DNA of 64,000 bases from Candidatus Minusculum obligatum (GTDB taxonomy: Bacteria > Patescibacteriota > Minisyncoccia > Phycocordibacterales > Phycocordibacteraceae): NCBI GenBank assembly GCA_002331145.1, contig DCYT01000001.1:223697-287696 (forward strand), written 5' to 3'. The notes under the pieces are model-generated. The model did no database searches and was not told the DNA's origin. It worked only from the letters and a program-made list of their open reading frames with translations. Shown here in pieces: positions 585 through 64,000 of this stretch. How positions within the stretch are numbered: the first letter of the stretch is position 1; every line of letters begins with the position of its first letter. The position numbers and the translations under genes were made by a program.

Positions 585-1222
585 ACGCTTAGTACAATAA
601 TATCACCCTTTTTATCCGTTAGGTCCTTCTTTTTGATAGTTAGTTTATCAACTGGCTTCCCATTTGCTTCCTCTTTCTTAAACACCTTAAGAGCATCTTT
701 GTCTCCCATTCCTTCATAGTGCATAGGAATGATAACTGATGCCTCAAGCTTTACTGCAAGCTTATGCGCCTTATCCGCATCAAGTACTCCACCTCCTCCA
801 ATTGGTACAAAAAGAATGTCCACCTCATCGAGTGCCTCCCGTGCATCAGCTGGAATACTGTCTTCGCTCATTGCTCCAAGGAAAACAAGTGTCATTCCTT
901 CAAGCTCAACTACATACATAGTATTAAGTCCTTCAGGACCTCCATGCTCACTCTTTGTTAGATACCCGCGAATAGCAACTCCATTCTTCTCATATGCTCC
1001 CGGTCCACTTACAACAAATGAGTCATCCTTTGCTCCATTGAAATCAGGATGTTGCTTTGAGACAAGGGTAATATCTGCACCAAATCGTACAGGAGAGAGC
1101 TTTGAATCCTTGTGTGGAGGGTCAAAAAGGAGTGTTGTGTCACCAAAAGAGACTTTGAAACACTGTCCGCCGTGATGCGTAATAACCATTGCAAGCAGTA
1201 TACCAAACCCACCAAAATACAC
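581..1222 (-). CDS. MBL-fold metallo-hydrolase (beta-lactamase superfamily)
   Basis: 213 aa with a His-rich N-terminal motif (ITHHGG) and a later DxxG/H pattern typical of metal-dependent hydrolases of the metallo-beta-lactamase fold. Confidence 0.65.
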
Positions 1223-3772: not shown

Positions 3773-3806
3773 CTGCTATACTCTTATGCAGAAAGGAGGT
3801 AAGGAA

Positions 3807-3926
3807 ATGATACACCCTGATGATTTCCCTCCACGTGAACGCAGACAAGGACATAAATTCCTTTGGGGACTTTTGCTCGTTGGGGCAGTTCTTGCAGTTA
3901 CTGCTATTCGATGCACCGGTGCTTAG
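3807..3926 (+). CDS. small membrane peptide (39 aa)
   Basis: Strong SD AAAGGAGGT upstream of ATG at 3807. Hydrophobic core FLWGLLLVGAVLAVTAI. 3' end overlaps the pth stop on the opposite strand. Confidence 0.4.
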   Translation: MIHPDDFPPRERRQGHKFLWGLLLVGAVLAVTAIRCTGA

Positions 3927-4516
3927 CGCCAACTATTCACTTCATTCTGTGCAATCACGTGACCGTCGGCAAGGATAAGCTCAACAGCTTGCCTCGCCTT
4001 TTTCTTTGCCTTATTCCAAGTAGTCTTATCTTTTCCAAAATCACTCATCAAATACTTAAGTACTTTCTCCTCCCCCTTCGGCTTCTTTGTCTTCCCCTTG
4101 GGGGTTGCAGCAGATATCCCTACCCGAAGACGAATAAAATCTTTTGTTTTTATTCCTCGCATTATTGAGTCAACTCCCTTGTGTCCACCTGATCCTCCTC
4201 CAAAAGATATTTTTATCTTCCCTAAAGGCAAATCAAGATCGTCATAGATAACAATCATTTTCTTTGCAGCATTCACGCTCTTCACAATTTTAGATACCGC
4301 AGACCCAGACTTATTCATGAAGGTGTTTGGAGACAAGAGTGTCACCTTCTCCCCTTCTATTACACCTGTTCCCTTTTCTGCATTACTTGCCTTGTGCTCC
4401 TTCATTTCAATTCCATACTCATCTGCAAGCAAATCAATCACCATGCGTCCAACATTGTGCTTTGTATTTGTGTATTCCCCTCCCGGATTTCCGAGCCCAA
4501 CGATTGTATGTGCCAT
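3923..4516 (-). CDS. pth: peptidyl-tRNA hydrolase
   Basis: N-terminal GLGNPG..Y..T.HNVG motif and overall Pth length and pattern (197 aa). Confidence 0.9.
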   Translation of the reverse strand: MAHTIVGLGNPGGEYTNTKHNVGRMVIDLLADEYGIEMKEHKASNAEKGTGVIEGEKVTLLSPNTFMNKSGSAVSKIVKSVNAAKKMIVIYDDLDLPLGKIKISFGGGSGGHKGVDSIMRGIKTKDFIRLRVGISAATPKGKTKKPKGEEKVLKYLMSDFGKDKTTWNKAKKKARQAVELILADGHVIAQNEVNSWR

Positions 4517-10770: not shown

Positions 10771-11187
10771 ATGAAAAACATACGAACATTGCCTCAACTG
10801 CTTGTTCGTATTTTCATACGTCCCGTATTTCCCTTTTTCCAATGGCTTGTTGTTACTCTTGGAATTATCAAGGCTCCTCCACGACAAGAGTTCCTTCTTG
10901 GAAAGTTGAGAGAAAATCTTTCATTTGATGAGGTACATAAACTTCTTAGAAAAGAAGGTTTTTATACAAACCGTATTGCCTTCATTGATCCAGGACAAGT
11001 TCTTAGCATGCGACGATTGGATGAGGAAAAACCTGACTGGCAATATCATATTCGTATTTTTGAAGATGGAGAGATTCGAGGACATTATGAGAAAACTCCC
11101 GAAGACCACCCCTTTGAACACTTAAACAATGTTGGGTTTGAAAATAGAGCCAACATGTTCTCCACATGGACTAAAAACATAACTTGA
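10771..11187 (+). CDS. hypothetical protein (138 aa, N-terminal hydrophobic segment)
   Basis: ATG directly after the trxB stop. No family recognised. Confidence 0.4.
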   Translation: MKNIRTLPQLLVRIFIRPVFPFFQWLVVTLGIIKAPPRQEFLLGKLRENLSFDEVHKLLRKEGFYTNRIAFIDPGQVLSMRRLDEEKPDWQYHIRIFEDGEIRGHYEKTPEDHPFEHLNNVGFENRANMFSTWTKNIT

Positions 11188-11213
11188 CAGAATTATACTG
11201 CGGGTGGTATAAT
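11184..11213 (+). promoter_or_regulatory. consensus sigma70 promoter TTGACA-N18-TATAAT (with GGTGG immediately upstream of -10)
   Basis: TTGACA 11184-11189 and TATAAT 11208-11213. The same 11-mer GGTGGTATAAT at the same distance from TTGACA is found at 34178. Confidence 0.65.
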
Positions 11214-11253
11214 GTAAACAGTTACGTACATTGGGTATGTAACTGTTCTTTAC

Positions 11254-11442
11254 ATGGAGGCTGTTATGGCCAAAAATCTTGCAGATGACCTGCGTCAGCG
11301 CAAAGAAGACCGCACGCAACACCGTCCTGCTTTTTCTGACAGGAACGGATGTGTGCACTTTGGGGAAACTCAAAGAGCAGCACAGCTTGTTGCGGCTGAA
11401 ACGAATCGGTCCTACGGCGCAAACGGTGGTCGTCGCGACTAA
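11254..11442 (+). CDS. GC-rich 62-aa hydrophilic small protein
   Basis: SD GGAGG upstream of ATG. Independently transcribed (consensus promoter, 5'-UTR hairpin, strong terminator). GC about 55% versus a roughly 40% genome background. Confidence 0.45.
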   Translation: MEAVMAKNLADDLRQRKEDRTQHRPAFSDRNGCVHFGETQRAAQLVAAETNRSYGANGGRRD

Positions 11443-11473
11443 CCAAGAATACGACTCAGAGAGACGAGTCATT

Positions 11474-11508
11474 GGGGACAGAATTCTGTTCTGTCCCCTC
11501 TTCTTTTG
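11474..11508 (+). terminator. rho-independent terminator (GGGGACAGAA-UUCUG-UUCUGUCCCC + U-tract)
   Basis: 10-bp stem followed by TCTTCTTTTG. Confidence 0.75.
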
Positions 11509-11562
11509 AGCTCATGAACATATTCGTGACCTCAAAGAGAGGATCTTTACACGGAGGTGGTG

Positions 11563-11937
11563 ATGGATACTGTCAGAATTCTCTGGCGGTCTAAACACCC
11601 GCCAACAAATAAACATAAACAGCTCCTTGAAGAGCTGTACGCAGGGAAAAAAGTTATTCTTTCTCCAGATGCAAATTGGATCAAGCACGCACATCACGTT
11701 GCTGAAGAATTCAAGACTGGAGAGTATGACGACCTGTTTGTGAATGCATCCTGGACCGTTCTCGATGCAATTGCAAAATGTGGCACACCGCCACTCATTG
11801 CAATTCTTGAAGAAAGTTCAGAACAAGATGCCGATCTTCATGACGGCAGAACTCACAAACAAGTGGTTGAAATTCGTCGCTTTAAGCAACTTATTATCGA
11901 CCACACAAAACCTCAACCGTATGAGTTGAAGAACTAA
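11563..11937 (+). CDS. hypothetical protein (125 aa), possibly Rossmann-like
   Basis: SD GGAGGTGG upstream of ATG at 11563. No confident family. Confidence 0.4.
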   Translation: MDTVRILWRSKHPPTNKHKQLLEELYAGKKVILSPDANWIKHAHHVAEEFKTGEYDDLFVNASWTVLDAIAKCGTPPLIAILEESSEQDADLHDGRTHKQVVEIRRFKQLIIDHTKPQPYELKN

Positions 11938-11965: not shown

Positions 11966-12652
11966 TCATGCCCTAGGCACAGAAATTCTTCGAATAGATT
12001 CGTTTCTATGAATCAATTCATCATCTCGAATTGAACAAAATAACTCATATTCATTTTTACACTCTCTTCCATAGAATTTTAGAAACTCACTCTCTATGTG
12101 GCGCTTCTTAAGCTCATCTCCACACTCTTCAATAAATTCTGAATACTGTTCATACGCATGAGACTCAAAAAGGTAGTTGAGCTCAAGTGCTGACTTTCGG
12201 TGCACCGTATAAAGAACAGCGCTCACGATGTAATAAAAGAATGAAAATAGAAGAGGGATAAGATAGTGCCTAAATGGTCCTCCAAGACCTTCCCTCTTGC
12301 AAATCTGTGTCATTACAACAACATGCATGGTCTCATTATCCTGCGCCACACGCCCAAAACGAGATGTGTGCGTTAGATTAATAGCCTTTTGCTCATTCCC
12401 GTACATGGCAGTTAAAAACATGTATGAGATCCATTCCCACGACTGATATGGGATACGTGCAATAACTTCTACTGCTTTAAATTTTTCATACGATGGCTTC
12501 TTCCCGTATACGGTATTCCCTGCAAATACGAGTATCCAACCAAAAATATTAGGAATAATTCCTACCTTGTATTCGCCACAAGCATTTTCATACCCCTTCT
12601 TAAATTCTGAGTCTTTAAGCTTTTCTACCAACTCCTCGTGTCTTTTGTCCAT
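11966..12652 (-). CDS. alternative-oxidase-like di-iron carboxylate protein (AOX/PTOX family)
   Basis: Motifs AVEVIARIPY (cf. LETVARVPY), NETMHV (cf. NERMHL), E-x-x-H-A-Y-E and RDDELIHR (cf. RADEAHHR) in the order and spacing of bacterial AOX. 228 aa. Confidence 0.6.
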   Translation of the reverse strand: MDKRHEELVEKLKDSEFKKGYENACGEYKVGIIPNIFGWILVFAGNTVYGKKPSYEKFKAVEVIARIPYQSWEWISYMFLTAMYGNEQKAINLTHTSRFGRVAQDNETMHVVVMTQICKREGLGGPFRHYLIPLLFSFFYYIVSAVLYTVHRKSALELNYLFESHAYEQYSEFIEECGDELKKRHIESEFLKFYGRECKNEYELFCSIRDDELIHRNESIRRISVPRA

Positions 12653-12724
12653 ATGACTCTAGTATATACGTATTGTTTGATTCTGGCGTTTTCTCCCCAA
12701 AATGCTACAATCGCGGCTACTTAC

Positions 12725-12796
12725 GGCCCTATCGTCTAATGGTTAGGACACCAGGTTTTCATCCTGGAAATCGGGGTTCAATTCCCCGTAGGGTCA
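12725..12796 (+). tRNA. tRNA-Glu (anticodon UUC)
   Basis: Cloverleaf with 7-bp acceptor GGCCCUA/UAGGGUC, anticodon stem CCAGG/CCUGG with loop UUUUCAU, T-arm GGGGUUCAAUUCCCC. Confidence 0.85.
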
Positions 12797-13801
12797 CAGA
12801 ATTTCAGGCTCGTTCGTAAGCCTCACGCCAGTTTCAGACTCAACTTTCTTTTGAACTTTCTCAAAAAGTTCCTGTATTTGCGATGCTGTTGCCTCACCTT
12901 TATTTACAATCATATTTGCTTGAGTCTCTGAAATACACGCATCTCCCACACAAAGTCCCTTAAGCCCTAAATCATCAATAAGTGCAGCACCTGGAATTTT
13001 AAATCCGTCTTCTGTTTTAAACACAGATTTCTTTACCTTCTCTGAGAGATTATATTTCTCAAGATCATCCACTTCTACATTTTTGAAAAATGAACCAACA
13101 CTCCAAATATTCTCTGGGTCTAAATCTTTTCCTTTTCTAATTTCTATTACCTTCTCTCTAATTTCTTTCTGTGTTGGATTATCTTTAAAGTTTTTTAGAC
13201 TTCGATACTTTGTAATTGGCTTTGGTTTTTTAGAAAGTTCTAAAGTTAATGAATGAACAATATACTTTCCTTTCTTATCAGTATTGAAAATACTTCTCCT
13301 GTACCCAAAGCCGCAATCTTCACAAAGAATTCGCTCATACATCTCTGTCTCAATATTAAAAGCATTTACGCTTTTAATATATGAAGATGCCTCAACTCCA
13401 TACGCTCCTACATTTTGTATAGCGAGCCCTGCTACAGTTCCTGGAATAAGTGAGAGATTCTCAAGGCCCCAATACCCCTTCTCTACCGTCTCTTGAATGA
13501 AACTGTCTAGATTCTCTGCAGCACCTACAGAAATAGTTACACTCTCTTCATCTTCTTTTAAAACTTCACTTCCCTTCACATCAAGTTGTACGACAACCAT
13601 ATCAAGCACCCTCTCTGGAAGAACAATATTGCTTCCCCCACCAAGCACAAATATTGGAAGATTCTTTTCTTTTGCAAATGAAGCTGTGGCCTGGAGGTCA
13701 TTTGTCTCAACAAAATATTGAGCAATACCACCCACTTTTAGCGTTGTCTTGTCTTTCAGTTCAACTCGTTCAGAAACCTTCATTTCATTGAATAGTACCA
13801 A
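12794..13801 (-). CDS. murB: UDP-N-acetylenolpyruvoylglucosamine reductase
   Basis: FAD-binding GGGSN motif and MurB-like N- and C-terminal domains. 335 aa. Confidence 0.8.
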   Translation of the reverse strand: MVLFNEMKVSERVELKDKTTLKVGGIAQYFVETNDLQATASFAKEKNLPIFVLGGGSNIVLPERVLDMVVVQLDVKGSEVLKEDEESVTISVGAAENLDSFIQETVEKGYWGLENLSLIPGTVAGLAIQNVGAYGVEASSYIKSVNAFNIETEMYERILCEDCGFGYRRSIFNTDKKGKYIVHSLTLELSKKPKPITKYRSLKNFKDNPTQKEIREKVIEIRKGKDLDPENIWSVGSFFKNVEVDDLEKYNLSEKVKKSVFKTEDGFKIPGAALIDDLGLKGLCVGDACISETQANMIVNKGEATASQIQELFEKVQKKVESETGVRLTNEPEIL

Positions 13802-20960: not shown

Positions 20961-21091
20961 ATATGCTAGTATAGCACCATGTTATTTGACCCTAAGGTAC
21001 AAAAAGCACTCAAATATGTATTTATTGTCTTCGCAATTCTTCTTGCGTTTTCAATGACCTTTGCCTTTGCCCCAATCTTTACAGGAGGATA

Positions 21092-31078: not shown

Positions 31079-31087
31079 CATTTTTAT

Positions 31088-31408
31088 ATCGTGGCTATAA
31101 GCCGGATTCTGTAATAAGAGTTTACACTCTTACCGACAGTTATTTACCTTGCCTTTATGTTGCCATAAAGATCTTTGCGGCACTCTCCATAAAATGGAGT
31201 ACGGCCTTGCACGTAGGTAGGAATTTTGCCGTTTCACCCATATGTCTCCACATGATTATTCCCGAGGGAACCCATTGCATCTCTGCGCTGGCGTCACTGC
31301 TCGCATCCCTAAGATTGCTCTCGACGGGCGTTACCCGCTACCCTGCTACAGAACAAGTCTGTACGTGTCCGGACTTTCCTCACAAAAGCGCAACTGTCCA
31401 CCACGACA
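31088..31408 (-). ncRNA. rnpB: RNase P RNA (bacterial type A-like, reduced)
   Basis: On the minus strand: P4 5' strand GAGGAAAGUCCGG (31369-31381), CAGGGUAGCGGGUAACGCCCG (P10/11/12 region), AGAGCAA, GGGUGAAA, AAGGCCGUAC (P15-like), P4 3' strand ACAGAAUCCGGCUUAUA (31096-31112). P1 pairing GUCGUGGU/GCCACGAU. About 320 nt. GC-rich against an AT-rich genome. Confidence 0.85.
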
Positions 31409-31414
31409 AAAAAG

Positions 31415-31958: not shown

Positions 31959-32384
31959 TCACTCACTTACCTCTCCATCGAAGTGTTCATGCATTTCGTC
32001 AGCCTTTGTTTTATGAACTATTCCGTGTTTATGCTCTGGTGGAGTATAGACAGAGTAAAGCTTCATAACCTCCTCTCCTGTATTTAAAACATTATGAGAT
32101 GCGCCAGCAGGAATCACTACCGCAAAATCGTCTTCAACATCATGTCCTACTCCATCAATTACAACTTTCCCAGAACCTTGTTCAAAACGAATAAACTGGT
32201 CAAGGTCGTGAACCTCTTCTCCAATCTCGTCTCCAGACTCAATTGCCATTAGTACTAATTGACTATTTTTCGTCGTGTAGAGAACTCGACGGTATTGAGT
32301 ATTTTCTAGCGTTTCCTTTTCAATATTTAATACGTATCCTTTCATTGTCTGTAAGTATATCAAAAACGAGAAGAGGGTGATCAA
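31959..32384 (-). CDS. cupin-domain protein
   Basis: Cupin motifs G.E.HDLDQF.RFEQGSG...DG (G(X)5HXH...E / G(X)5PXG(X)2H(X)3N-like). 141 aa; true start may be the internal MKGYV. Confidence 0.6.
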   Translation of the reverse strand: MITLFSFLIYLQTMKGYVLNIEKETLENTQYRRVLYTTKNSQLVLMAIESGDEIGEEVHDLDQFIRFEQGSGKVVIDGVGHDVEDDFAVVIPAGASHNVLNTGEEVMKLYSVYTPPEHKHGIVHKTKADEMHEHFDGEVSE

Positions 32385-34177: not shown

Positions 34178-34207
34178 TTGACAATGTATATATTTAGGTG
34201 GTATAAT
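34178..34207 (+). promoter_or_regulatory. consensus sigma70 promoter TTGACA-N18-TATAAT (GGTGGTATAAT module)
   Basis: TTGACA 34178-34183 and TATAAT 34202-34207. Same GGTGGTATAAT module and spacing as the promoter at 11184. Divergent from lemA. Confidence 0.65.
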
Positions 34208-34239
34208 ACATTTAACGTTGATCTTTACAGGAGGCTCTT

Positions 34240-34473
34240 ATGAGCGACGCAAAAAAAGAAGGTTCCGTCATTGCTTGGTTCCTCATTGCTGGTGCAGGAG
34301 TTCTCTGCGCCATCGTGGGAATCGGAGCATTCGTCACTGACGTGTTCATCATGTCACCGGATCGCCCTGCAGCAGGAATTGGCGGAACAATGCTTCTGTT
34401 CCTCTTCGGAACACTCAGCTGGCTCTGCTGGCACATGCTTCATACGGGCACAGTAAGGCCTGAAGAAAGTTAA
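34240..34473 (+). CDS. GC-rich 77-aa two-TM small membrane protein
   Basis: SD AGGAGG upstream of ATG. Two hydrophobic helices. Own consensus promoter and terminator. Confidence 0.5.
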   Translation: MSDAKKEGSVIAWFLIAGAGVLCAIVGIGAFVTDVFIMSPDRPAAGIGGTMLLFLFGTLSWLCWHMLHTGTVRPEES

Positions 34474-37324: not shown

Positions 37325-39214
37325 ATGGAACACAAAAGACCAGGTCCAGGGAAAAAGCCCGGACCACACAAGCGAGGGCCAGGAGGACCAAGGAAACCTC
37401 GACCAAAAATTCACGGAGGGCCATCAACAGCCCCAGGTGGAAACAGAACGGTTCGCAGCAAGCGAAACGCTCGTATGGAGATGCGTCGAGACGCACCAAT
37501 TATTGCTCGTCGTGAAGATGAGTACTATCCAGAAGCTCCAGATAAAGATACAGCTCGAGTTATACCTCTTGGAGGAGTTGAGGAGGTGGGACGAAACTGT
37601 ACTGCTATTGATGTAAATGGAGACATCTTTATTTTGGATGTTGGATTCCAGTTCGTATCAGAAGAGCATGCTCCTGGAATTGACTATGTTCTTCCAAATA
37701 CAAAGTACTTGGAGAAAAACGTAGATCGAATCAGAGGTGCACTTATCACTCACGGTCACCTTGACCACATTGGAGGAGTTCCCTTCATGATGGGACGTAT
37801 TGGAAACCCAACAATCTACACACAGAATCTAACATCTGTGATGATTAAGAAGCGACAGGAAGAATATCCTGATGCACCAAAGCTTGATATTCAGGAAGTG
37901 AAGGTTGGAGATCGAATCAAAATTGGAAACACTTTTGTAAAGTTCTTCCCCGTAACTCACTCTATTCCTGATTCAATGGGAGTATCAATTGAATCTCCAC
38001 ACGGAAACCTGGTTATCTCAGGAGACCTTAAGCTTGACCATGTTGATGGAAAGCCAGCTCCTATTGAGGAGAAAACATGGGGAGAGCTTGGAAAAGACAA
38101 GAACATCTTCTTCATGGGAGATTCAACAAACGCTGAGCGTGATGGATTCTCAATGCCTGAAACAAAGGTACACCAGACTATTGAAGACATCATCAAGACA
38201 GTAAAAGGACGTCTTATTATTGGAACCTTTGCCTCACAGTTTGAGCGAATGGTGAAGATTCTTGAAATGTCTGAGAAGCTTGGAAAGAAAGTGGTTCTTG
38301 AAGGACGAAGTATCAAAACAAACGTGGAGATCGCAAACCATGTGAATCTTCTAAACATTGGAAAGGATGTGATTATTCCTTCAGGAGATATTGATAAGTA
38401 TCCACCAGACAAGATCATTATCATTGCCACAGGAGCTCAGGGAGAGAAGTTTGCTGCTCTTATGCGCATCGCAACTGGTAAGCACAAGTTCGTAAAACTT
38501 ACTCCTCGAGACACTATTGTTTTCTCATCTTCTGTTATTCCAGGAAACGAAGTTTCTGTTCAGAAGCTGAAGGACAATCTATACAGGCATGATATTAACC
38601 TTCTTCACTACCGAACAAGTGATGTGCACTCAACAGGGCACGGAAATACTGGAGAGCTTGTATGGATCAACCAGCAAGTTCACCCTACATTCTTTATGCC
38701 AGGGTACGGATATCACACAATGCTTAGGCTTCATGCCCGCGCTGTTGAGCAATCTGGATTCCCCAAGGAGAACATCATCATTCCAGATAATGGAACAGTG
38801 ATTGATATTATCAAGGGAGAAAAGCTTCACATCCACAAGCAAAAGGTACCTGCTGCCCCACTTCTTGTTGATGGAATCGGAATTGGAGATATGCAGGAAG
38901 TTGTTATCCGAGATCGGCAGATGCTTTCAAAGGATGGAATCTTCGTGATCATTGCAACTGTGCAATTGAAGACCGGAAAGCTTCGAAAGTCTCCTGACAT
39001 TATTTCTCGAGGATTTGTATACATTCGAGAAAACCAGGAGCTCTTCCAGCATGCTCGCATCCTTATCAAGAAGAGTGTTGAGGACACTACACAAGGCATG
39101 CATCCTATCGACCTAGATATTGTGAAGAAGGAACTAACCAATACACTTGAAACGTACCTCTTCCAAAAGACCAACAAAACACCAATTGTTATACCTGTAC
39201 TGATCGGAGTATAA
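37325..39214 (+). CDS. rnj: ribonuclease J (beta-CASP MBL) with basic low-complexity N-terminal extension
   Basis: HGHLDHIGG metallo-beta-lactamase motif, beta-CASP region, and C-terminal domain. About 80-aa Pro/Gly/Lys/Arg-rich N-terminus. Confidence 0.85.
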   Translation: MEHKRPGPGKKPGPHKRGPGGPRKPRPKIHGGPSTAPGGNRTVRSKRNARMEMRRDAPIIARREDEYYPEAPDKDTARVIPLGGVEEVGRNCTAIDVNGDIFILDVGFQFVSEEHAPGIDYVLPNTKYLEKNVDRIRGALITHGHLDHIGGVPFMMGRIGNPTIYTQNLTSVMIKKRQEEYPDAPKLDIQEVKVGDRIKIGNTFVKFFPVTHSIPDSMGVSIESPHGNLVISGDLKLDHVDGKPAPIEEKTWGELGKDKNIFFMGDSTNAERDGFSMPETKVHQTIEDIIKTVKGRLIIGTFASQFERMVKILEMSEKLGKKVVLEGRSIKTNVEIANHVNLLNIGKDVIIPSGDIDKYPPDKIIIIATGAQGEKFAALMRIATGKHKFVKLTPRDTIVFSSSVIPGNEVSVQKLKDNLYRHDINLLHYRTSDVHSTGHGNTGELVWINQQVHPTFFMPGYGYHTMLRLHARAVEQSGFPKENIIIPDNGTVIDIIKGEKLHIHKQKVPAAPLLVDGIGIGDMQEVVIRDRQMLSKDGIFVIIATVQLKTGKLRKSPDIISRGFVYIRENQELFQHARILIKKSVEDTTQGMHPIDLDIVKKELTNTLETYLFQKTNKTPIVIPVLIGV

Positions 39215-41402: not shown

Positions 41403-41421
41403 ATTGCGCTGAGTATAGCAA

Positions 41422-43076: not shown

Positions 43077-43096
43077 ATATAGCGATTATATCATTT

Positions 43097-45160: not shown

Positions 45161-45557
45161 TGCAGAAAGTATACCAAACTTCTTTGCTGCCCGTTCAATG
45201 CCATTATTCGAACTTTAGCGCGGGGATTTGCTCAAAAGAAAAATGATCACACGATGGACACATAACAAGATCTTGTTTTTAGTGTAGAATGTACTCAGAT
45301 GGAGACGAAGGTACGCCATGCGTCTCCGGCCTAAATGTTCTTTCAAAGAAAATAATTCCTTCTCGTCCTTGAGAAGGCAAGATCACTAAGGGCTTCTCTC
45401 CATCTGGAGGGAAGCCCATTTTCATATTTACTATTACAAGATATCTGCTCCACAGAGTAAAAATGACCACGCCAACGATAACTAAGCCGCTCCGCACAAC
45501 CATTTACAAATTGGATATTTATGCTTTAATTCAATTAGTTAACGGTTGGAGGTAACC

Positions 45558-48986: not shown

Positions 48987-49008
48987 TTTCTTGAGTATAA
49001 CAAATTAG

Positions 49009-53774: not shown

Positions 53775-56208
<2,434 letters not shown>

Positions 56209-56218
<10 letters not shown>

Positions 56219-56724
56219 TTAAATAAACGTTCCTCCACCGTTACGTTCCTCGTTACCCCTCTTTGTGTCCAACGAACCTCAACATCAACCAACACCTCAT
56301 GTGCTTGGATTTGTGTAATTGAAATAGTTCGAACATACCTTGTATCTGTACCATTTTGATACCCAAACAATCCTGTAGAGCTCTGCCGCAGAAACGGACA
56401 TGTTCCAGAACATGATGTAATTGTAGGATATGTTGCAACAGAGCTGTCGATAGTACAGTTTCCACCAACACACGGACCTAGGTCCTGCAGCCAATTTGCC
56501 TCATTTGAGAGGTAGTTATGGTCTCGAACACTTCGCACATACTCAATTCCTTCTTGGGCCAAGAATGATGCAGTTGTTCTGTCTCGCGCTGTAGCAGCTG
56601 AGGTAAAACTTTGCTGAGCAATAAAGAGCGGCCCGGTAATAGAAAGTGTCAAAACAAAGATCGCTACGAGCGTTTCAACCAATGTAAATCCTTGTGTGCT
56701 TTGATATCTCATACTATAGGTCAA
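56209..56724 (-). CDS. type IV pilin-like minor pilin/pseudopilin
   Basis: QGFTLVETLVAIFVL prepilin cleavage/methylation motif. Confidence 0.65.
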
Positions 56725-57274
56725 TTATTCTCTGTGTTACCGTCGACTGAATTGAAAAGTCAGAAGTCTCCTCTCCACTCTCTGCAGTCCCAGAGAGCGC
56801 AATCATCACACGAGGCTGAAACTGATCTGATCCTGATGCACCAAAGACAAAGAAGTTGAATTCTTCAATATCTACATTGGTAGAGGTAATCTCGATCCAG
56901 CCAAGAGAAGATCCTTCTGCAATAGGCACAAGCTGCCTTTCGATGAATCCTCGACCTCCAACTTGACGGTGTCGATACCGCACTCGATATTCTTCATTGT
57001 TTATTACCGCATTTAGCTGCAGACGATTGCTCCCACTTGCACAATCACTCCCCACAGAGAAATTACATCCGTAGGAATATCCTGTACGAATTGTTCGCGC
57101 CATACTCTCAAGTGAGAAATTCAGATCAGTAATCACACTATTTAGCGCCTGAGCTCTTTTATTCTCTGACACAAGCGTAAAGAGCGCACTCATTCCAACC
57201 AACATAACTACACTAAAGAGTGCAACTGACACCATCATCTCAATCAATGTAAACCCTCTTACGGAATCTGACAT
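56714..57274 (-). CDS. type IV pilin-like minor pilin/pseudopilin
   Basis: RGFTLIEMMVSVALFSVVM prepilin motif. Confidence 0.65.
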   Translation of the reverse strand: MSDSVRGFTLIEMMVSVALFSVVMLVGMSALFTLVSENKRAQALNSVITDLNFSLESMARTIRTGYSYGCNFSVGSDCASGSNRLQLNAVINNEEYRVRYRHRQVGGRGFIERQLVPIAEGSSLGWIEITSTNVDIEEFNFFVFGASGSDQFQPRVMIALSGTAESGEETSDFSIQSTVTQRIIDL

Positions 57275-57918
57275 GTTGTTTCAATAGATACTTGCCCTGT
57301 TGGCCTAACCCTTACACACCGAGTAGCGTTCCCGTCTTGAGATCTCAGGATAATAAGTGCTGACTCATAGAGACTTGTTCCTCCTCCTGTTCTTCCCACG
57401 ATAACCGCATCAGGATTGGGGCGCCTAAACTGGACAGAAAGATCGAGCAGTGATCCTGGAGTGCTGATACCTGTACTACACGTTGCTGCTCCTGCTCTAA
57501 TTCCGCAGAATCGATCAATGAAGTTTCCTCGTGTAATTGTCGTTGTCTCTACAATCTCTGTATCATTAGTAAATCGCTCATCATCATTTAAATCGGCGTA
57601 CAAAACGTACTCTGTTCTATTTGCTGGATCGTATTCAAAGTGCACTCCATAGAGAAAGTCCTCAGTTGCTCCAATACGCGCAGATCCCTCAAACTCTCTT
57701 ACCGAAATACCAAATACCTGTGCCTGCCGCACTGAAAGTCCTACCTCATAAGCAAGGTTCGTAAGGGCAAGCGTTTCATTAAATTGATTGTGCTGCACGA
57801 GCGCTACACTCGTAATCACAATAATAATTCCCATTGAAACGAGAAGCTCAACAAGAGTAAACCCCTTCTTTAGAAGAAGACCGATGGTAGAAGGTTTAGT
57901 TGTAGTAGATACGCGCAT
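57259..57918 (-). CDS. type IV pilin-like minor pilin/pseudopilin
   Basis: KKGFTLVELLVSMGIIIVI prepilin motif after a short leader. Confidence 0.65.
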   Translation of the reverse strand: MRVSTTTKPSTIGLLLKKGFTLVELLVSMGIIIVITSVALVQHNQFNETLALTNLAYEVGLSVRQAQVFGISVREFEGSARIGATEDFLYGVHFEYDPANRTEYVLYADLNDDERFTNDTEIVETTTITRGNFIDRFCGIRAGAATCSTGISTPGSLLDLSVQFRRPNPDAVIVGRTGGGTSLYESALIILRSQDGNATRCVRVRPTGQVSIETTCQIP

Positions 57919-58616
57919 AAAAATCCAATAGCGAGATATGGCGCAAAAGGCACCTCATTACTCATTGTACGGCGCTTTCCATAAATCACCAACAGAGCTA
58001 CTGAAATAACTGCACCGATCCAAAATGAGAGCATAAAGCCAGTTATAGCAAGTGGATATCCAACAAAAAGAGCAAGTGCGAGTACCAATTTCGCATCTCC
58101 AAACCCCATTGCCCTCCCTTTTGAAAAGAGCCAAATAAGACCAAAAAATAGGGCCATAGCAGAAGCTGCTATTGGCGTGTAAATATCTCCTGAGATATAT
58201 GCCATTGCCCCTCCAACTACAATAAGTGGGTATACCAATACATTTGGAATAATGGTGTGGCGCAAATCGTAAATAACGATACTGCTAAGGAGCGTAAGGA
58301 AGATGAGAGATAAAACTAATTCAATACCAAACCCATGTATATAAAACGCAGCACCAAATAATGCGGCTAATACTATCTCTGCAAGAAAATGAGATACTCC
58401 TATCTTACTCCCACACATCTGACACCTGCCACGCAATACAAGAAACGAAACAATTGGAATAAGTGTAAAGGGAGATAATTCCTCTGCGCATGAATCACAC
58501 TTAGAGCGTCCAGTTAAAATCTGTCGCCCACTGTTTAACCTATAGGCAACAACATTTGCAAAGCTTCCAACAATTGCACCGAGCGCAATAATTGCTATGT
58601 AGTACGAGATCATCAT
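57870..58616 (-). CDS. pilD: prepilin peptidase (A24 family)
   Basis: N-terminal CxxC...CxxC zinc-binding pairs (CDSC, CQMC), polytopic peptidase A24 domain with conserved Asp residues. Confidence 0.8.
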   Translation of the reverse strand: MMISYYIAIIALGAIVGSFANVVAYRLNSGRQILTGRSKCDSCAEELSPFTLIPIVSFLVLRGRCQMCGSKIGVSHFLAEIVLAALFGAAFYIHGFGIELVLSLIFLTLLSSIVIYDLRHTIIPNVLVYPLIVVGGAMAYISGDIYTPIAASAMALFFGLIWLFSKGRAMGFGDAKLVLALALFVGYPLAITGFMLSFWIGAVISVALLVIYGKRRTMSNEVPFAPYLAIGFLCAYLLQLNLLPSVFF

Positions 58617-59074
58617 GGAATCAATCGAGATGTGTCGTAGCAGTGATATCGAAACTCTCTTCTACACCCACTTGTGTCTGTCCCATTAATACCTGTTCGT
58701 ACTGCGTCACTATCTGAGAGAAGTGCTGCTGCAGTACTTGATTCAAGATTTACACCTAGATAGTAACGACTTCCGTCTCGAGTTGTTTTATAGATAAATG
58801 GCTCATTAAGCCTTGGGTCCTCTGGGACTTCAGATAGGTATGCTTGAGCAACAAGCGTCTCAAGCGTCACAGGGTAAATAGCATGATCTTCTGCATAGCG
58901 TTGAAGAGCACGACTTACATCAGCAACCTCAATAATTCGCTTACTGTCCCTTGCTTCAATTCGAGCATTCACCAAAGATGTAAGTGAAATAGAAGAAAGC
59001 AGACCTACAGCCGCTAAGATAACCAGAAGTTCCATAAGAGTAAAACCTCGCATATACCCCCTATCATACAACAC
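58613..59074 (-). CDS. type IV pilin
   Basis: RGFTLMELLVILAAVGLL prepilin motif. 153 aa. Confidence 0.7.
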   Translation of the reverse strand: MLYDRGYMRGFTLMELLVILAAVGLLSSISLTSLVNARIEARDSKRIIEVADVSRALQRYAEDHAIYPVTLETLVAQAYLSEVPEDPRLNEPFIYKTTRDGSRYYLGVNLESSTAAALLSDSDAVRTGINGTDTSGCRREFRYHCYDTSRLIP

Positions 59075-59123
59075 TCAAAAACGCCCCGTAAGGAGCGTTT
59101 TCGAATAGCTTAGAAAAGTTACC

Positions 59124-59585
59124 CTATGACGCAGGACAACTTGTGTTTCCAGCTGTTAGGTTTGTAGTTCGCTCTCCTCTAAATCCAGTAGAGTCAACAC
59201 AGAAGAATGTGCTGGCAGTTCCTGGAAGCGGTGATGAGATTGCGTATGCGCTAGCACTAGCTCCACATACTACAGACCCAGCTGCGTTTCGAGACTCAAC
59301 CTCAGTAACTGCGTTTGCAATTGCTGTGTCGTCCTCAAATAGACTTGCTGCGGTCTCACCTGTACAAGCATCGATTGCTCCTCCAGCGTACGTACTGCTG
59401 TTACTGTCGTAGTAAAGCTCAGCCTGTACAGCTACAGTCGCAAGGTTTGCCTTAATGTTAGCGTCAGCTCCTCGGCTTCGTGCTGTATTAAGTGAAGCAA
59501 GTACCACTGATGAGAGAATTCCGATGATCGCGATCACCACAAGCAACTCAATCAAGGTAAAACCTCGTTTTGTATTCATTGTCAT
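59124..59585 (-). CDS. pilA: major type IV pilin (PilA-like)
   Basis: KRGFTLIELLVVIAIIGILSSVVLASL canonical class III signal and N-terminal helix. C-terminal Cys pair. Own transcription unit (terminator upstream and downstream). Confidence 0.8.
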   Translation of the reverse strand: MTMNTKRGFTLIELLVVIAIIGILSSVVLASLNTARSRGADANIKANLATVAVQAELYYDSNSSTYAGGAIDACTGETAASLFEDDTAIANAVTEVESRNAAGSVVCGASASAYAISSPLPGTASTFFCVDSTGFRGERTTNLTAGNTSCPAS

Positions 59586-59618
59586 ATCTGTTGTTTGTTC
59601 GTTACCGATAATTCCCTA

Positions 59619-59641
59619 TAAAAAAAGGGTCCGGACCCTCT
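59619..59641 (-). terminator. intrinsic terminator downstream of pilC
   Basis: AGGGUCCGGACCCU palindrome followed by UUUUUUU on the minus-strand transcript. Confidence 0.65.
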
Positions 59642-59689
59642 TATTGTACGGCCCAGACCCTTGGTAGTTTTTATTTCGTGTGGATAAAC

Positions 59690-60916
59690 CTACACAGCAC
59701 CTGAAGAAATATTGTAAATCGGGATAAGCACGGCACCGAGAAGCACTCCTACACCAAGCGCCAAAGTCACAATCATGGCAGGCTCAATAAGATCCACGAG
59801 CGTATCTACCGCATTAGATACCTCTCGCCTATAAAACTTAGAAAGTGTTGTGAGGATATTTCCAAGCTCTCCAGTCTCCTCTCCCACTCGAATCATAGCG
59901 GTCATAATTGACGGAATTTGTGGGTGCTTTCCAATAGCATCAGCAATTGATGATCCCCCACGAATCTCTTCTGCAGAATTTAGAAGAATCTTTTCATACA
60001 CTCTGTTATCTACTACCGTAGCGGTAATCTCCACCGCCTCTACAACGGCAATACCAGAGAGAAGCATAGTAGATAGGTTATCTGCCATTCGAGAAAGATA
60101 GAGTTTCTGGTAGAGGTTTCCAAGATATGGAGCGGCAAGCTTTATCTCATCCAAGATATATGACCCCTGGTTTGTTGACATATATCGGTAGAAGAAGAAT
60201 CCTCCAATCGCAAGACCAATCAACAAGAAGAATCCATAATTAATGAAGAACTCTGAAAGTCCAATAACCAATTTTGTGTACAAAGGAATCTCCTGACCTG
60301 AATCGATAAGGATTGCACTAATACGTGGAATCACCATCGTAAGCATCAGGATCATCACCACAACGAATGTGCTAATAACGAATGCAGGATAAATCAGAGC
60401 ATTCTGTGCTTTATTCTGTACCTCATAGGTTCGATCAAGATAGTCAGCCAGGAAGGTGAATGTTTCAGACAATCGTCCTGCCTCTTCTCCTGCCTTTACC
60501 ATGTTTGCGTAGAATTTAGAGAAAACCTTTGGATGTTTTGTCATCGCCTTTGAGATAGGGTTTCCTCCTTGAATATCATCTGCAACTGAAGTTAGAATCT
60601 TCGCAAGCTTTGGATTCTCCACCACCGTAGCCAAAAGACGAAATACTCGAAGCGCTGACACTTGTGCCTCAAAAAGTGTTGAGATCTGGCGAGACAAAAT
60701 AACAATGTCTCGATTTGATACTCCACTGAAAATATCGATTTCAAATGAAAGGATTCCTCCTTGCTCTGCAGGAGAAATAGAAGAAACAATAAGGTTTCGA
60801 CGCTGTAGCGCTGTTACCGCAACATCCATTGAAAGAGCGTCGATTGTTCCCTCTCGCTCGTTTCCTTCCTGATCTAGGGCTTTATATACAAACAACATAT
60901 TACAGGTATCGCTCAA
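59690..60916 (-). CDS. pilC: type IV pilus assembly platform protein PilC (GspF family)
   Basis: Two T2SSF repeats with three TM segments. 408 aa. Between pilT and the pilin genes. Confidence 0.85.
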   Translation of the reverse strand: MSDTCNMLFVYKALDQEGNEREGTIDALSMDVAVTALQRRNLIVSSISPAEQGGILSFEIDIFSGVSNRDIVILSRQISTLFEAQVSALRVFRLLATVVENPKLAKILTSVADDIQGGNPISKAMTKHPKVFSKFYANMVKAGEEAGRLSETFTFLADYLDRTYEVQNKAQNALIYPAFVISTFVVVMILMLTMVIPRISAILIDSGQEIPLYTKLVIGLSEFFINYGFFLLIGLAIGGFFFYRYMSTNQGSYILDEIKLAAPYLGNLYQKLYLSRMADNLSTMLLSGIAVVEAVEITATVVDNRVYEKILLNSAEEIRGGSSIADAIGKHPQIPSIMTAMIRVGEETGELGNILTTLSKFYRREVSNAVDTLVDLIEPAMIVTLALGVGVLLGAVLIPIYNISSGAV

Positions 60917-61961
60917 ACACTCTTGGATCGAGTGCTCGCTCGTATGCGTGCTCTACGGTAATCTCTCCCTTTTGCACAAGCTCTGCAAGAGATCGGTCCA
61001 TATCCACCATTCCATCCTGCGTTCCTGTCTGGATGATGGTATTAATTTCGTGCGTTCGTCCCTCTCGAATAAGGTTTGCTACCGCCGCATTATTGATAAG
61101 CACCTCATATGCTGGGATTCGTCCTCCTGAGATTCGAGGTACAAGCCGCTGAGAGAAAATACCAGCAAGAGACCCCGCAAGCTGAATTCGCACCTGGTCC
61201 TGCTGACTTGCTGGGAACGAATCGATAATTCGATCAATTGTCTGTGCCGCATTGTTTGTGTGAAGTGTTGAAAGTACGAGGTGCCCTGTCTCAGCTGCAG
61301 TTACGGCAGATGAAATAGTTTCGTATGCCCGCATCTCTCCCACCATCATTACGTCTACATCCTGACGGAATGCTGCGCGAAGTGCCTCGTGGAAACTTGG
61401 TGCATCAATTCCAACCTCTCGTTGCTCGATAAGAGATTTCTTTGGCTGGAAAATATACTCAATAGGATCCTCAATCGTTACGATGTGCTCAGCCCTTGTT
61501 AGGTTGATCATCTCAATCATGGCAGCAAGTGTTGTTGACTTACCTTGCCCCACCGGCCCTACCACCAAAAAGAATCCCTGCTTCCTTTGTGCAAAGGTTT
61601 CAAGAATTGGAGGAAGTCCAAGACTTTGAATAGATTGAATTTGTTTTGGAATCAGACGAAGTGCAATAGCAATACTTCCATGCTGATAGAATCCGTTTCC
61701 TCGAAAACGCCCAACATCTCCAAAGCTGTATGAAAAATCAATTGACTGCTCCTTTTGGAATCGTGGGTATCGCCCCTCTCCCACAAGCTCCTTAAGGAAG
61801 ACTTCAGTATCTTCTGCTGTTAACTTATCTTTTTGGAAAAGAGGAATGAGTGAACCTGACACCCTGATGGTTGGATGATTTCCAACAGAAAGATGAAGGT
61901 CTGATCCACCTTCGTCGACAACGGTTTGTAGTAGTTGTTGTAAATCTTGTACAGTCGCCAT
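60900..61961 (-). CDS. pilT: twitching-motility retraction ATPase PilT
   Basis: Walker A GPVGQGKST, Asp box, Walker B, His box. 353 aa (PilT-sized, no N-terminal GSPII_E_N domain). Confidence 0.8.
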   Translation of the reverse strand: MATVQDLQQLLQTVVDEGGSDLHLSVGNHPTIRVSGSLIPLFQKDKLTAEDTEVFLKELVGEGRYPRFQKEQSIDFSYSFGDVGRFRGNGFYQHGSIAIALRLIPKQIQSIQSLGLPPILETFAQRKQGFFLVVGPVGQGKSTTLAAMIEMINLTRAEHIVTIEDPIEYIFQPKKSLIEQREVGIDAPSFHEALRAAFRQDVDVMMVGEMRAYETISSAVTAAETGHLVLSTLHTNNAAQTIDRIIDSFPASQQDQVRIQLAGSLAGIFSQRLVPRISGGRIPAYEVLINNAAVANLIREGRTHEINTIIQTGTQDGMVDMDRSLAELVQKGEITVEHAYERALDPRVFERYL

Positions 61962-61962
61962 A

Positions 61963-62379
61963 TTACGCAGTTTCTTCTCCTCTTAAAATCTTCCCTGTCC
62001 GCTCAAGCACCTCAGACGGGATAGCACTCGCCTTGATAATGTATCCTGCAGCTCCAAGCTTCTTTGCTCGCTCCACATCACTGTCCTGTCCCTGATTTGA
62101 AAGAATAATAACCTTTGTTTTTGGAGCTAAATTCTCTCGATTAATTGCCTCGAGCACAGCAAATCCATCCACCTCAGGCATAACAACATCAAGAAGAATT
62201 GCATCAGGCGGAGTTCCTTCTCGAAGCTTTGTAAGCACATCATTTCCTCCCTGACATGCTGTTACGTCCATCCCTGCACTCTTAAACTTCATTGAGTACA
62301 TATCCAAAAGGAATCGATCGTCATCAACCAAGTAGATTTTGTATTTTTTTGCAGGTTCCGCCATATTAGTCTTCAACAA
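61963..62379 (-). CDS. single-domain response regulator (CheY/PilH-like receiver)
   Basis: Receiver motifs (YLVDDD...D..MP..DG...K). 138 aa. Embedded between pilB and pilT. Confidence 0.7.
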   Translation of the reverse strand: MLKTNMAEPAKKYKIYLVDDDRFLLDMYSMKFKSAGMDVTACQGGNDVLTKLREGTPPDAILLDVVMPEVDGFAVLEAINRENLAPKTKVIILSNQGQDSDVERAKKLGAAGYIIKASAIPSEVLERTGKILRGEETA

Positions 62380-64000
62380 GGAATTCTCCGCCCAAAGTAT
62401 TCACCTCCTCAAACGGAACTGTTCCCTCTAGTGCCTTAATAATAGCATCCTCCTTCATAGTGAGCATTCCTTTTGCACGGGCAGCTGTAAACACTTTGTC
62501 CTCTACTGGATCGTTCAAGATCACCTGCTCAAGATCGTCATCAACCCGAAGCAATTCAAATACTCCAAGACGTCCTCGTGTACCATTTGGACAATCAGGA
62601 CCCGGCGCAACTCCATACATAAACTTCTTATCTGGAATGTATTTTGTTCGATACTCCTCTGGAAGATCCTCAAACTGCTTATCAAGCATAATCTTAAGAC
62701 CTCCCTCAATTGGGATCTTTCTTCCAGCTCCTTCACACATCTTTCGCACGAGTCGCTGTCCAATAACAGCAACAAGCGTAGGGGCAATAAGGTATGGATC
62801 AATTCCCATGTTAATCAAACGCGGAATGGCTCCTGCCGCTGTATTGGTGTGAATAGTTGAGAACACCAAGTGACCTGTTAGCGCAGCCTGGATAGCAAGC
62901 TGTGCTGTTTCTTTATCTCGGATCTCTCCCACCATGATGATATCCGGGTCCTGTCGCAAAATAGACCGCAGTCCCGAAGCGAAGGTATAGCCAATCTCAG
63001 GACGCACTTGAGATTGAGATACTCCAGTAATATCGTACTCAACCGGATCCTCAAGAGACACTACATTGTGCTTCTCTCGATCAATCTCTCGAAGCATAGA
63101 GTAGAGCGTTGTAGATTTTCCAGATCCTGTAGGCCCTGAAATAAGAATGATTCCGTATGGTTGCTGTACGATCTCTCGTACCACCTCAAGGTTTCTCTTA
63201 ATAAACCCGAGATCCTCAAGCGTCCTCTGTCCTGCAGACCTGTCGAGGATTCGCATCACCACCTTCTCCCCATAGAAGGTTGGGAATGTTGAAACTCGGA
63301 AGTCGATATTTCGATCTTCTACCTTTGCAGAGAATCGTCCATCTTGCGGCTTTCGTTTCTCATCAAGCTTAATAGACGCAAGAATCTTAATACGCGCCAC
63401 TACCGCTCTGTGCACCTTTGTTGGAAGCTCAAGAGACGTATGAAGATCTCCATCCATTCGGAAACGAATACGAACCTTCTCTCGTGTAGGCTCAATATGA
63501 ATATCGGACGCTCCTCCCTCTACCGCATAACGAAGTACCGTTGCTACAATTTTTGTAACAGGAGCATCTTCCTTGATGATAGTTTGAACGTCTTCTGCCT
63601 TTGACTCCTCCTTCTTTCCAGCTCCTGAATCTGTAACAAGAGCAGTCTCAAGCTCGGTAAGAGCAGCCCCCACCTCTCCTGTTAGAGATTGGTATTGCTC
63701 AATTACTTTATCAAAATCACTCTTTCCTATAAGGAAGAGCTTGTACGGCATCTTAATTCGAGTAGAGATGAAGTTAAGTGCATCAAGTGCCTCAATATTA
63801 TCTGGATCTACAATTCCAACCTCCAACACATCGTCTGCAACTGAAAGAGGAATCATCTGATAGTGCCGAGCACTCTCCTCTGGCACATATCCAAGAACAC
63901 TGTTGGCAACAGTAACGTCTGAAATATCCCGAGTGGGCATATTGTAGTGCTCCCCTTCTGCCTCAAGAATATCCTCTTTTGAAATACCTCTTCGAGCAAG
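62366..64000 (-). CDS. pilB: type IV pilus assembly ATPase PilB (GspE family), 5' end beyond the window
   Basis: GSPII_E N-terminal domain, Walker A GPTGSGKST, tetracysteine-region equivalents and His box. The reading frame stays open upstream of the ATG at 63940 to the window edge. Confidence 0.85.
   Translation of the reverse strand, partial: LARRGISKEDILEAEGEHYNMPTRDISDVTVANSVLGYVPEESARHYQMIPLSVADDVLEVGIVDPDNIEALDALNFISTRIKMPYKLFLIGKSDFDKVIEQYQSLTGEVGAALTELETALVTDSGAGKKEESKAEDVQTIIKEDAPVTKIVATVLRYAVEGGASDIHIEPTREKVRIRFRMDGDLHTSLELPTKVHRAVVARIKILASIKLDEKRKPQDGRFSAKVEDRNIDFRVSTFPTFYGEKVVMRILDRSAGQRTLEDLGFIKRNLEVVREIVQQPYGIILISGPTGSGKSTTLYSMLREIDREKHNVVSLEDPVEYDITGVSQSQVRPEIGYTFASGLRSILRQDPDIIMVGEIRDKETAQLAIQAALTGHLVFSTIHTNTAAGAIPRLINMGIDPYLIAPTLVAVIGQRLVRKMCEGAGRKIPIEGGLKIMLDKQFEDLPEEYRTKYIPDKKFMYGVAPGPDCPNGTRGRLGVFELLRVDDDLEQVILNDPVEDKVFTAARAKGMLTMKEDAIIKALEGTVPFEEVNTLGGEFLVED

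Follow-up and report, generated by a model that had tools for sequence, protein, structure and literature searches.

The locus examined here is a small gene with its expression signals, together with the gene that follows it, in a 64,000-nucleotide (nt) stretch of Candidatus Minusculum obligatum DNA (contig DCYT01000001.1, positions 223,697 to 287,696), referred to throughout as the window. A preliminary description had listed a promoter, a palindrome, a ribosome-binding site (RBS), a GC-rich open reading frame (ORF) and a terminator, and all of these were found in the window (Table 1). The gene lies between those for a 138-amino-acid (aa) and a 124-aa protein in the order FtsA-FtsZ-TrxB-138aa-[small]-124aa-AOX(-), and this order is kept in the related metagenomic loci L003/L004/L007 and L008, with the same central genes on the short contigs L005, L006 and L009. 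Tara Oceans contigs, the longest of 602 kb, encode the small protein. For comparison we used the window and five related metagenomic versions of the locus (six in total). From these we conclude that the small gene is real but of an ordinary kind, a small-protein gene with strong and conserved expression signals, and we lean modestly towards reading the locus as a self-contained, high-expression unit for a lineage-restricted 58-aa cytoplasmic protein of one marine Patescibacteria (Paceibacteria-like) bacterium.

Table 1. Features of the small-gene locus, of its downstream gene and of comparable sites (window positions unless a locus is named).
Feature	Position	Strand	Basis or remark
-35 box TTGACA	11184-11189	+	Overlaps TGA stop of upstream 138-aa gene; invariant in 6/6 versions
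Extended -10 box TGgTATAAT (TATAAT 11208-11213)	11205-11213	+	TGnTATA(A/C)T in 6/6 versions
5'-terminal hairpin AGUUACGUAC-AUUGG-GUAUGUAACU	11220-11244	+	Fold; predicted transcription start 11220/11221
RBS module UCUUUACAUGGAGG, Shine-Dalgarno GGAGG 11256-11260	11247-11260	+	83-94% identical in three closest relatives
Coding sequence, 58-aa protein MAKNLADDLRQRKEDRTQHRPAFSDRNGCVHFGETQRAAQLVAAETNRSYGANGGRRD, stop included	11266-11442	+	Homologues, dN/dS, frame
3'-untranslated-region hairpin hp1: GACUC, loop AGAGAGAC, GAGUC	11453-11470	+	Consensus fold
Intrinsic terminator: 11-bp stem 11474-11498 and U-tract UCUUCUUUUG	11474-11508	+	6 GC pairs
Hairpin hp3, ~18 bp	11499-11543	+	Abuts terminator stem; 5' arm is the terminator U-tract
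RBS module of downstream gene, UCUUUACACGGAGGUGGUG	11544-11562	+	No promoter detected upstream
124-aa gene	11563-11937	+	Same orientation; homologues at same position in L003, L006, L007, L008, L009
Second promoter locus, TTGACA-N18-GGTGGTATAAT, RBS module TCTTTACAGGAGGCTCTTATG	34178-34473	+	77-aa protein
Leaderless-type extended -10 sites	48994-49002, 45168-45176, 43085-43093, 41412-41420	-	Without recognisable -35 box
Leaderless-type extended -10 sites	32354-32362, 20968-20976, 1197-1205	-	Without recognisable -35 box
TetR_N-adjacent palindrome loci	L094, L097, L103, L105, L106, L107, L109, L113		Metagenome scan

The ORF as called spans 11254-11442 and has a GC content of 0.55, compared with 0.42 for the window. 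A word-indexed protein search matched the query only, and homologues came from exhaustive phmmer searches, which returned proteins of 60 and 59 aa, and from profile searches, in which the family comprised six clusters and one distant member. The homologues are 59-61 aa long and align from residue 5 of the called ORF. Because the MAKNL start is conserved, and because ATG 11254 falls within the Shine-Dalgarno sequence and the L003 clade has no such ATG, the true start is, on these alignments, ATG 11266 (MAKNL...), with GGAGG 5 nt upstream. Of the 62-codon, 55% GC ORF first reported, the ORF and its GC content hold and the length is revised to 58 aa; the strong Shine-Dalgarno sequence reported with it is likewise present (GGAGG at 11256-60).

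Alignment of the proteins revealed a conserved D-x-R-G-C-V-H-F-G core followed by a helix, with a SYGxNGG(R/K)R tail kept in four lineages; in the L003 clade the core motif is DRYGNLHFA. The proportions of nonsynonymous and synonymous differences (pN/pS) were 0.12/0.56 for L005 against L009 and 0.02/0.17 for L003 against L008, the corresponding rate ratio (dN/dS) was 0.11-0.13 in the two closest pairs, frame +1 was the sole stop-free frame across 6/6 versions, and indels among the orthologues keep the frame. With homologues, a conserved core, low dN/dS and one frame open in all versions, the small gene is, by these sequence measures, protein-coding. Both its own promoter and its own terminator occur in all five related versions, which agrees with the original view of a genuine small gene equipped with each.

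An AlphaFold model of the protein consists of a helix (5-18), a beta-hairpin (22-32) and a second helix (36-54), with a mean predicted local distance difference test (pLDDT) score of 74. Foldseek found no match to this model in the PDB at E<=0.001, and the sequence gave only a weak repeat-protein match there (8fjf, E = 0.025). Pfam, NCBIfam, PADLOC and PHROGs contained no match to the small, 124-aa or 138-aa proteins, nor to the 77-aa product of the second locus in Table 1. The database check proposed for the 62-aa and 77-aa products thus yielded relatives of the small protein in metagenomes, and no family match for either protein. The small-protein family was detected solely in this clade and on one distant AT-rich contig. 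The closest species representatives in an FtsZ scan were Paceibacteria, Nomurabacteria and Parcubacteria genomes at <=74% identity, none of which has a small/124-aa cassette near ftsZ, and the viral contigs searched contained no relatives of the small protein, the 124-aa protein or the 3'-untranslated region (3'-UTR) motif. The 58-aa family is undescribed and narrowly distributed. Its distant member, P0010 (L010 400-800), has the core AIDSRGCVHFGPTPQEA and an acidic tail, and is encoded on a very AT-rich contig downstream of TTGACA-N17-TATAGT, a ~150-nt hairpin-containing leader, and AAAGGAGGT. Since this upstream layout is comparable, a strong-expression layout may be a feature of the whole small-protein family.

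A GC-rich island can indicate a structured RNA, and for this reason structured RNA was tested first. Under this explanation the segment would be a non-coding or dual-function RNA and not primarily a protein gene, for which the GC-richness within a lower-GC genome would be typical, and the window copy does have multiple open frames. The ORF body also folds with unusual stability (z = -3.9 when dinucleotides are shuffled and -3.65 when synonymous codons are), and 4/6 orthologues reach z <= -2.65 in both tests (-2.65 to -3.65 against synonymous-codon shuffles, region 11264-11450 (+)). However, the fold architectures of the coding region differ among the six orthologues, with L005 and L009 not unusually stable, and a conserved mRNA structure in the coding sequence was rejected on these grounds. 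Rfam gave nothing for the locus at gathering thresholds and chance-level matches only at E<=10, and ARAGORN found no transfer-messenger RNA or tRNA there. Furthermore, amino-acid motifs are conserved at ~50% nucleotide identity, and the low dN/dS, the single shared open frame and the in-frame indels all contradict an RNA gene, leaving this explanation extremely improbable.

The promoter matches TTGACA/TATAAT at 12/12 positions, with an 18-nt spacer and a TG upstream of the -10 box. The 64 kb contain TTGACA-N16-19-TATAAT at two sites, 11184 and 34178, where 0.05 would be expected, and 0/100 shuffles gave two, so that a perfect consensus promoter, rare in the window, is indeed present as described. 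The genome had been called AT-rich; at 42% GC the window is only moderately so. All five related versions carry the -35 box and an extended -10, in keeping with the expectation of a conserved promoter, with a spacer of 16 nt compared with 18 nt in the window and with -10 contexts of ATGCTATAAT or ATGGTATACT. As the orthologues differ in this respect, the exact 11-mer context GGTGGTATAAT is, across the sequences compared, specific to this genome.

Extended -10 sites of the form TGnTATAMT number 11 in the window against 4 expected, and 7/11 have an ATG exactly 7-8 nt downstream that opens a long ORF. None of these seven has a recognisable -35 box, which suggests that this genome by default makes leaderless mRNAs from extended -10-only promoters. 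The -10-to-ATG spacing of these leaderless genes was used to predict the transcription start of the small gene, which would fall at 11220/11221. In the window, L005, L006, L009 and the L003 clade alike, hairpin pairing begins at this putative +1. A third leadered small gene was observed at 3774-3980 (+), with TGCTATACT, a 37-nt leader containing AGGAGG and a 52-aa ORF; it directly follows a terminator-like hairpin downstream of the S1 gene, and the annotations of relatives place small ORFs of 66 and 56 aa there.

The second site of the consensus class belongs to a 77-aa gene (34240), whose hydrophobic product apparently has two transmembrane segments and which lies between LemA and a response regulator. 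Its signals are TTGACA-N-TGGTATAAT and CUUUACAGGAGG, with GGTGGTATAAT recurring at 34197, and the leaders of the 11184 and 34178 loci share TCTTTACA(N)GGAGGCTNTTATG. CTTTACA-N0-2-GGAGG has four sites in the window against 0.03 expected, three of them in leaders (11248, 11545 and 34223). With one mismatch allowed, recurrence of the 11-mer has an expectation of 0.69 and 14/100 shuffles gave at least two copies, which is not significant alone. Hence the reported recurrence of the promoter module at 34178 stands for the 11-mer itself, the promoter class and the RBS module, although the 11-mer by itself carries no statistical weight, and shared high-expression signals between the two genes are supported by the sequence comparison.

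These shared signals, and the GC content of both genes, had been taken to suggest a co-acquired set, in which the genes at 11266 and 34240 would have been imported together by horizontal transfer. Both are GC-richer than the window (third-position GC, GC3, 0.45 and 0.52 vs 0.34 +/- 0.05) and have the promoter and RBS module in common, as such an origin would predict. Against this, GC1/GC2/GC3 of the small gene are 0.69/0.50/0.45 compared with window means of 0.55/0.38/0.34 (standard deviation ~0.05-0.06), so the excess falls largely on codon positions 1 and 2; it is mostly due to amino-acid composition (Ala/Gly/Arg/Asp-rich). GC3 of the S21 gene is 0.44, close to that of the small gene, and because of this and the position 1/2 excess we attribute the difference to composition and expression-linked codon choice and not to foreign origin. 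Moreover, the FtsZ-TrxB-138aa-small-124aa-AOX synteny is kept in relatives with FtsZ 93% identical, which indicates on comparative grounds that the small gene is vertically inherited with no recent import; the lack of viral relatives and the restriction of the family to the clade and one distant contig also speak against transfer, and the GGTGGTATAAT context is genome-specific. We accordingly set the co-acquired label aside, and joint horizontal acquisition has a negligible chance of being correct.

Immediately after the -10 box lies the palindrome of the preliminary description, at 11216-11247, in which AAACAGTTACGTAC (11216-29) pairs with GTATGTAACTGTT (11235-47) to give 13-bp arms with one G:T. 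As RNA it folds into a 10-bp hairpin of ~-11 kcal/mol. The window, L005, L006 and L009 share the hairpin core AGTTACRTAC-N5-GTATGTAAY, and 9/9 stem pairs form in these four lineages; two pairs vary, by wobble-compatible changes only (G-C to G-U, G-U to A-U). In the L003/L008 clade the same position is occupied by a sequence-unrelated hairpin of ~20 bp, and so among relatives the palindrome is either conserved or structurally replaced. Of the two roles first proposed for it, stem-loop or operator, the stem-loop is the better fit, because every lineage has its hairpin beginning at the predicted +1 and because the window, as had been stated, encodes RNase J (37325-39214). We put slightly better than even confidence in the palindrome acting as a 5'-terminal mRNA-stabilising hairpin.

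The mechanism that would follow begins with the full -35 and extended -10 boxes driving transcription, in a genome where most other promoters seem to be extended -10 only and leaderless. Transcription would begin 7-8 nt past the -10 box, where the pairing of a 9-10-bp hairpin sets in, and the resulting 5'-terminal stem-loop would leave <=1 unpaired nucleotide. Secondary structure at the 5' end stabilises mRNA, since a single-stranded 5' end is required by RppH and by 5'-dependent RNases; B. subtilis RppH requires >=2 unpaired nucleotides (PMC3997798). A 5'-terminal stem-loop with <=1 unpaired nucleotide is known to block RppH and 5'-end-dependent RNases (PMC3997798), and it is for this reason that we favour a stabilising role, which the layout suggests for the 5' hairpin. 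Together with ribosomes on GGAGG, the hairpin would shield the mRNA from decay initiated by an RppH-type pyrophosphohydrolase and RNase J. Most transcripts would then end at the 3' hairpin and intrinsic terminator, while read-through RNA would fold an 18-bp hairpin with the U-tract as one of its arms and would carry UCUUUAYA-N-GGAG ahead of the 124-aa gene, giving a lower-level product. The combined signals point to high expression of the small gene.

Several observations weigh against this interpretation. Covariation in the 5' hairpin is minimal, with 7/9 pairs invariant and none changed on both sides, and because of this an RNA role is compatible with the data and not demonstrated. The second promoter of the class, at 34178, has a leader with neither a 5' hairpin nor a copy of the palindrome. 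The 18-nt spacer exceeds both the optimum and the 16 nt of the orthologues. The non-coding flanks are at the ~80% background of nucleotide identity and are conspicuous only beside a hypervariable coding sequence. Finally, a metagenome scan for the exact palindrome returned 25 loci, none orthologous to the small-gene locus, and at least 8 of the 25 directly adjoin TetR_N genes in an operator-like position (Table 1).

This last result bears on the rival explanation that the palindrome is an operator, in which a dimeric repressor on GTTACRTAC-N5-GTATGTAA 3' of the -10 box would shut the promoter off; such a repressor might be of TetR type and encoded elsewhere in the genome, or it might be the small protein itself in an autoregulated toxin-antitoxin-like pair. 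At +1 to +24, with 9-13-bp arms, the palindrome occupies a classic repressor position overlapping the transcription start. The TetR_N-adjacent form, AGTTACATAC-N5-GTATGTAAC, occurs in unrelated bacteria with genomes of 40-74% GC, often in tandem with a second similar site, and in L106 it stands immediately 3' of a TTGACA-N17-TAAAAT promoter. With at least eight copies beside TetR_N genes and one directly after a promoter, such a palindrome can be an operator, and its exact form looks like a recurrent TetR-family operator type in unrelated bacteria. The palindrome of the small gene also persists in four lineages in which the small protein has just 43-57% identity to that of the window, the L003 clade differs in both protein core (DRYGNLHFA) and inverted repeat, and hypervariability like that of the two-gene cassette is common among toxin-antitoxin and immunity pairs.

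Against the operator explanation, no TetR_N ORF was found in the window (64 kb of a >=600-kb genome), L003, L007 or L008, where phmmer searches of six-frame ORFs with three TetR queries gave a best E of 0.054. The palindrome has no second copy in the 64-kb window and its half-sites are only weakly above chance there, on which basis a role as a regulon site was rejected. A perfect palindrome needs only ~9 bases of information, and the TetR-linked copies in unrelated genomes may for this reason be coincidental. Autoregulation is made less likely by the lack of a recognisable DNA-binding fold in the small protein and of any PADLOC or Pfam match, and the spacing of the small and 124-aa genes, 120 nt with a terminator inside it, departs from that of type II toxin-antitoxin pairs. 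The ~20-bp hairpin of the L003 clade, with its AU-rich centre, would likewise be an atypical operator. We regard an operator as unlikely, and retain the stabilising hairpin as the preferred account of the 5' end.

On the 3' side, the strong terminator that had been reported is formed by an 11-bp stem (11474-98) and a U-rich tail, TCTTCTTTTG, and has compensatory changes in relatives; the stem covaries between clades, with pair 51-73 GC in three sequences and AU in three. The preceding hairpin, hp1, has a compensatory A-U to G-C change in L006 and is replaced by a sequence-unrelated hairpin in L005. The following one, hp3, is predicted in 4/4 folded lineages, with its pairs conserved in 6/6 sequences. 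The hp1-terminator-hp3 layout is predicted in four lineages, with 3'-region fold z-scores of -3.9 to -6.9. After hp3, UCUUUACACGGAGG precedes the ATG of the 124-aa gene at 11563. No promoter-like site was found within 11443-11562, from which we infer that the 124-aa gene is probably expressed by terminator read-through. Both cistrons share a leader layout of a hairpin followed by UCUUUAYA-N-GGAG, in which UCUUU is able to pair weakly with GGAGG, a pairing we treat as unproven.

Three consecutive hairpins, including a terminator, ahead of a promoterless 124-aa gene, together with a stop codon (11440-11442) 10 nt 5' of hp1, would fit a regulatory leader, the translation status of the small ORF controlling hp1, the terminator and hp3 and hence the 124-aa gene by attenuation. 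Attenuation is very unlikely here, as the terminator and hp3 do not overlap and so are not mutually exclusive, and no antiterminator pairing was found. In addition, 58 codons with a conserved structured core are unlike known leader peptides, and the distant homologue P0010 retains this core in another context. The 124-aa protein was modelled with a Rossmann-like beta-alpha core (pLDDT ~75-80 over residues 1-83); Foldseek of this model against the PDB returned only generic Rossmann-like or periplasmic-binding-protein lobes at template-modelling scores of 0.3-0.4, a 124-aa profile found nothing in the PDB, and a genome-contig scan for the family found none.

Comparison of the window with L003 showed that the small and 124-aa genes have diverged rapidly. 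Amino-acid identity was 93% for FtsZ, 86% for TrxB and 85% for AOX, and 54%, 34% and 59% for the 138-aa, small and 124-aa proteins, respectively. The small-gene coding sequence is at ~50% nucleotide identity in every comparison, against a genomic background of ~80% between the window and L003. We had considered the 3'-UTR and intergenic region exceptionally conserved and dropped this, as it sits at that background and the coding sequence is the outlier. Between L006 and L009, which come from the same sample, identity is 92% for the 124-aa proteins and 51% for the small proteins, with synonymous codon differences at identical residues of 0.45 in the small gene and 0.18 in the 124-aa gene. The L009 small protein groups with that of L005 (80% identity), while the L009 flanks group with L006. 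In L006 and L009 the AOX fragments share 96-100% identity with the AOX of the window, compared with only ~55% for the 124-aa proteins, and L005 has a very divergent downstream gene (MTKRILWWSSHGPLP...). This pattern suggests, at the level of sequence, that turnover reflects either allele exchange or a local mutational or selective peculiarity. A diversity-generating retroelement target was rejected, as no repeat >16 nt of 11150-11600, as a template would provide, was found elsewhere in the window.

A stronger form of the exchange explanation is that the small and 124-aa genes form a hypervariable cassette between conserved signals and flanks, with alleles recombining among co-occurring Paceibacteria populations, to which we assign a low probability. 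If correct, it would imply a diversifying pressure, for example from host, phage or kin interaction, and could mark, in an episymbiotic lineage, a new effector or toxin/immunity-like pair, with GC enrichment as a possible by-product of biased gene conversion. Rapid and possibly recombination-driven turnover is a signature type of conflict or interaction loci, and the fast evolution of this gene pair is the sole aspect that might repay further work.

Downstream of the pair, at 11966-12652 (-), is a 228-aa protein with a match to Pfam AOX (alternative oxidase, di-iron; E = 1e-7); it is 85-100% conserved in relatives and unexpected in a small-genome Patescibacteria bacterium. Between AOX and MurB the window (12653-12800) contains tRNA-Glu only, whereas the L003/L007/L008 clade has an extra DUF6653 gene there (L003 11099-12114), with a small ORF additionally beside it in L003 and L007. 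Elsewhere in the window, a bacterial class A RNase P RNA at 31082-31409 (-) scored 104.6 bits against an Rfam threshold of 100, a marginal score that suggests a divergent or reduced RNA, and at 55754-63940 (-) is a type IV pilus or pseudopilin-like cluster with several GFTLIE-type N-termini, plus large upstream ORFs.

In terms of annotation, the locus contributes a small-protein family not described before, from a marine Patescibacteria lineage that is uncultured, and corrects its start codon. It also illustrates a way in which these bacteria may assemble a unit for high expression, from a -35 box with extended -10, a 5' hairpin, a Shine-Dalgarno sequence and a terminator, in contrast with leaderless genes behind an extended -10 alone, which form the genomic background. 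Should the hairpin prove to stabilise the mRNA, the 5'-stem-loop/RNase J logic of Firmicutes would extend to the Candidate Phyla Radiation.

Among described systems, the 3' arrangement resembles intercistronic terminators that set differential expression within operons, in that a strong terminator separates co-oriented genes of which the second is promoterless, and differs from them in the adjacent hp3 hairpin, which reuses the U-tract as one arm; to our knowledge, no counterpart of such a hairpin has been described. Like type II toxin-antitoxin operons, the cassette has a small upstream and a larger downstream gene, a promoter palindrome and rapid diversification relative to its flanks; unlike them, it has no toxin or antitoxin domain, has a 120-nt gap with a terminator, and is chromosomal, syntenic and single-copy. 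The palindrome has half-sites and spacing identical to those of TetR-family operators in soil-metagenome bacteria (GTTACATAC-N5-GTATGTAAC) and, as at L106, lies immediately downstream of a sigma-70-type promoter, but no TetR gene is near the small gene and the organisms are unrelated. As in the E. coli ompA and papA and B. subtilis aprE leaders, a hairpin is placed at the extreme 5' end with, as predicted here, <=1 unpaired nucleotide, a strong RBS follows it and a 5'-end-dependent RNase (RNase J) is encoded; in aprE the stem-loop is combined with ribosome binding. There is no sequence similarity to these leaders, and the host belongs to the Patescibacteria, whose decay machinery is unstudied. 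The B. subtilis hbs mRNA codes for a small, abundant protein and is stabilised by ribosomes that initiate at its strong Shine-Dalgarno site and by a structured 5'-UTR (PMC5737220). The small-gene transcript would be similar in that it would be short and monocistronic, with a strong Shine-Dalgarno sequence and a structured UTR at either end, and RNase J would be the nuclease concerned, although its product is unrelated to HU.

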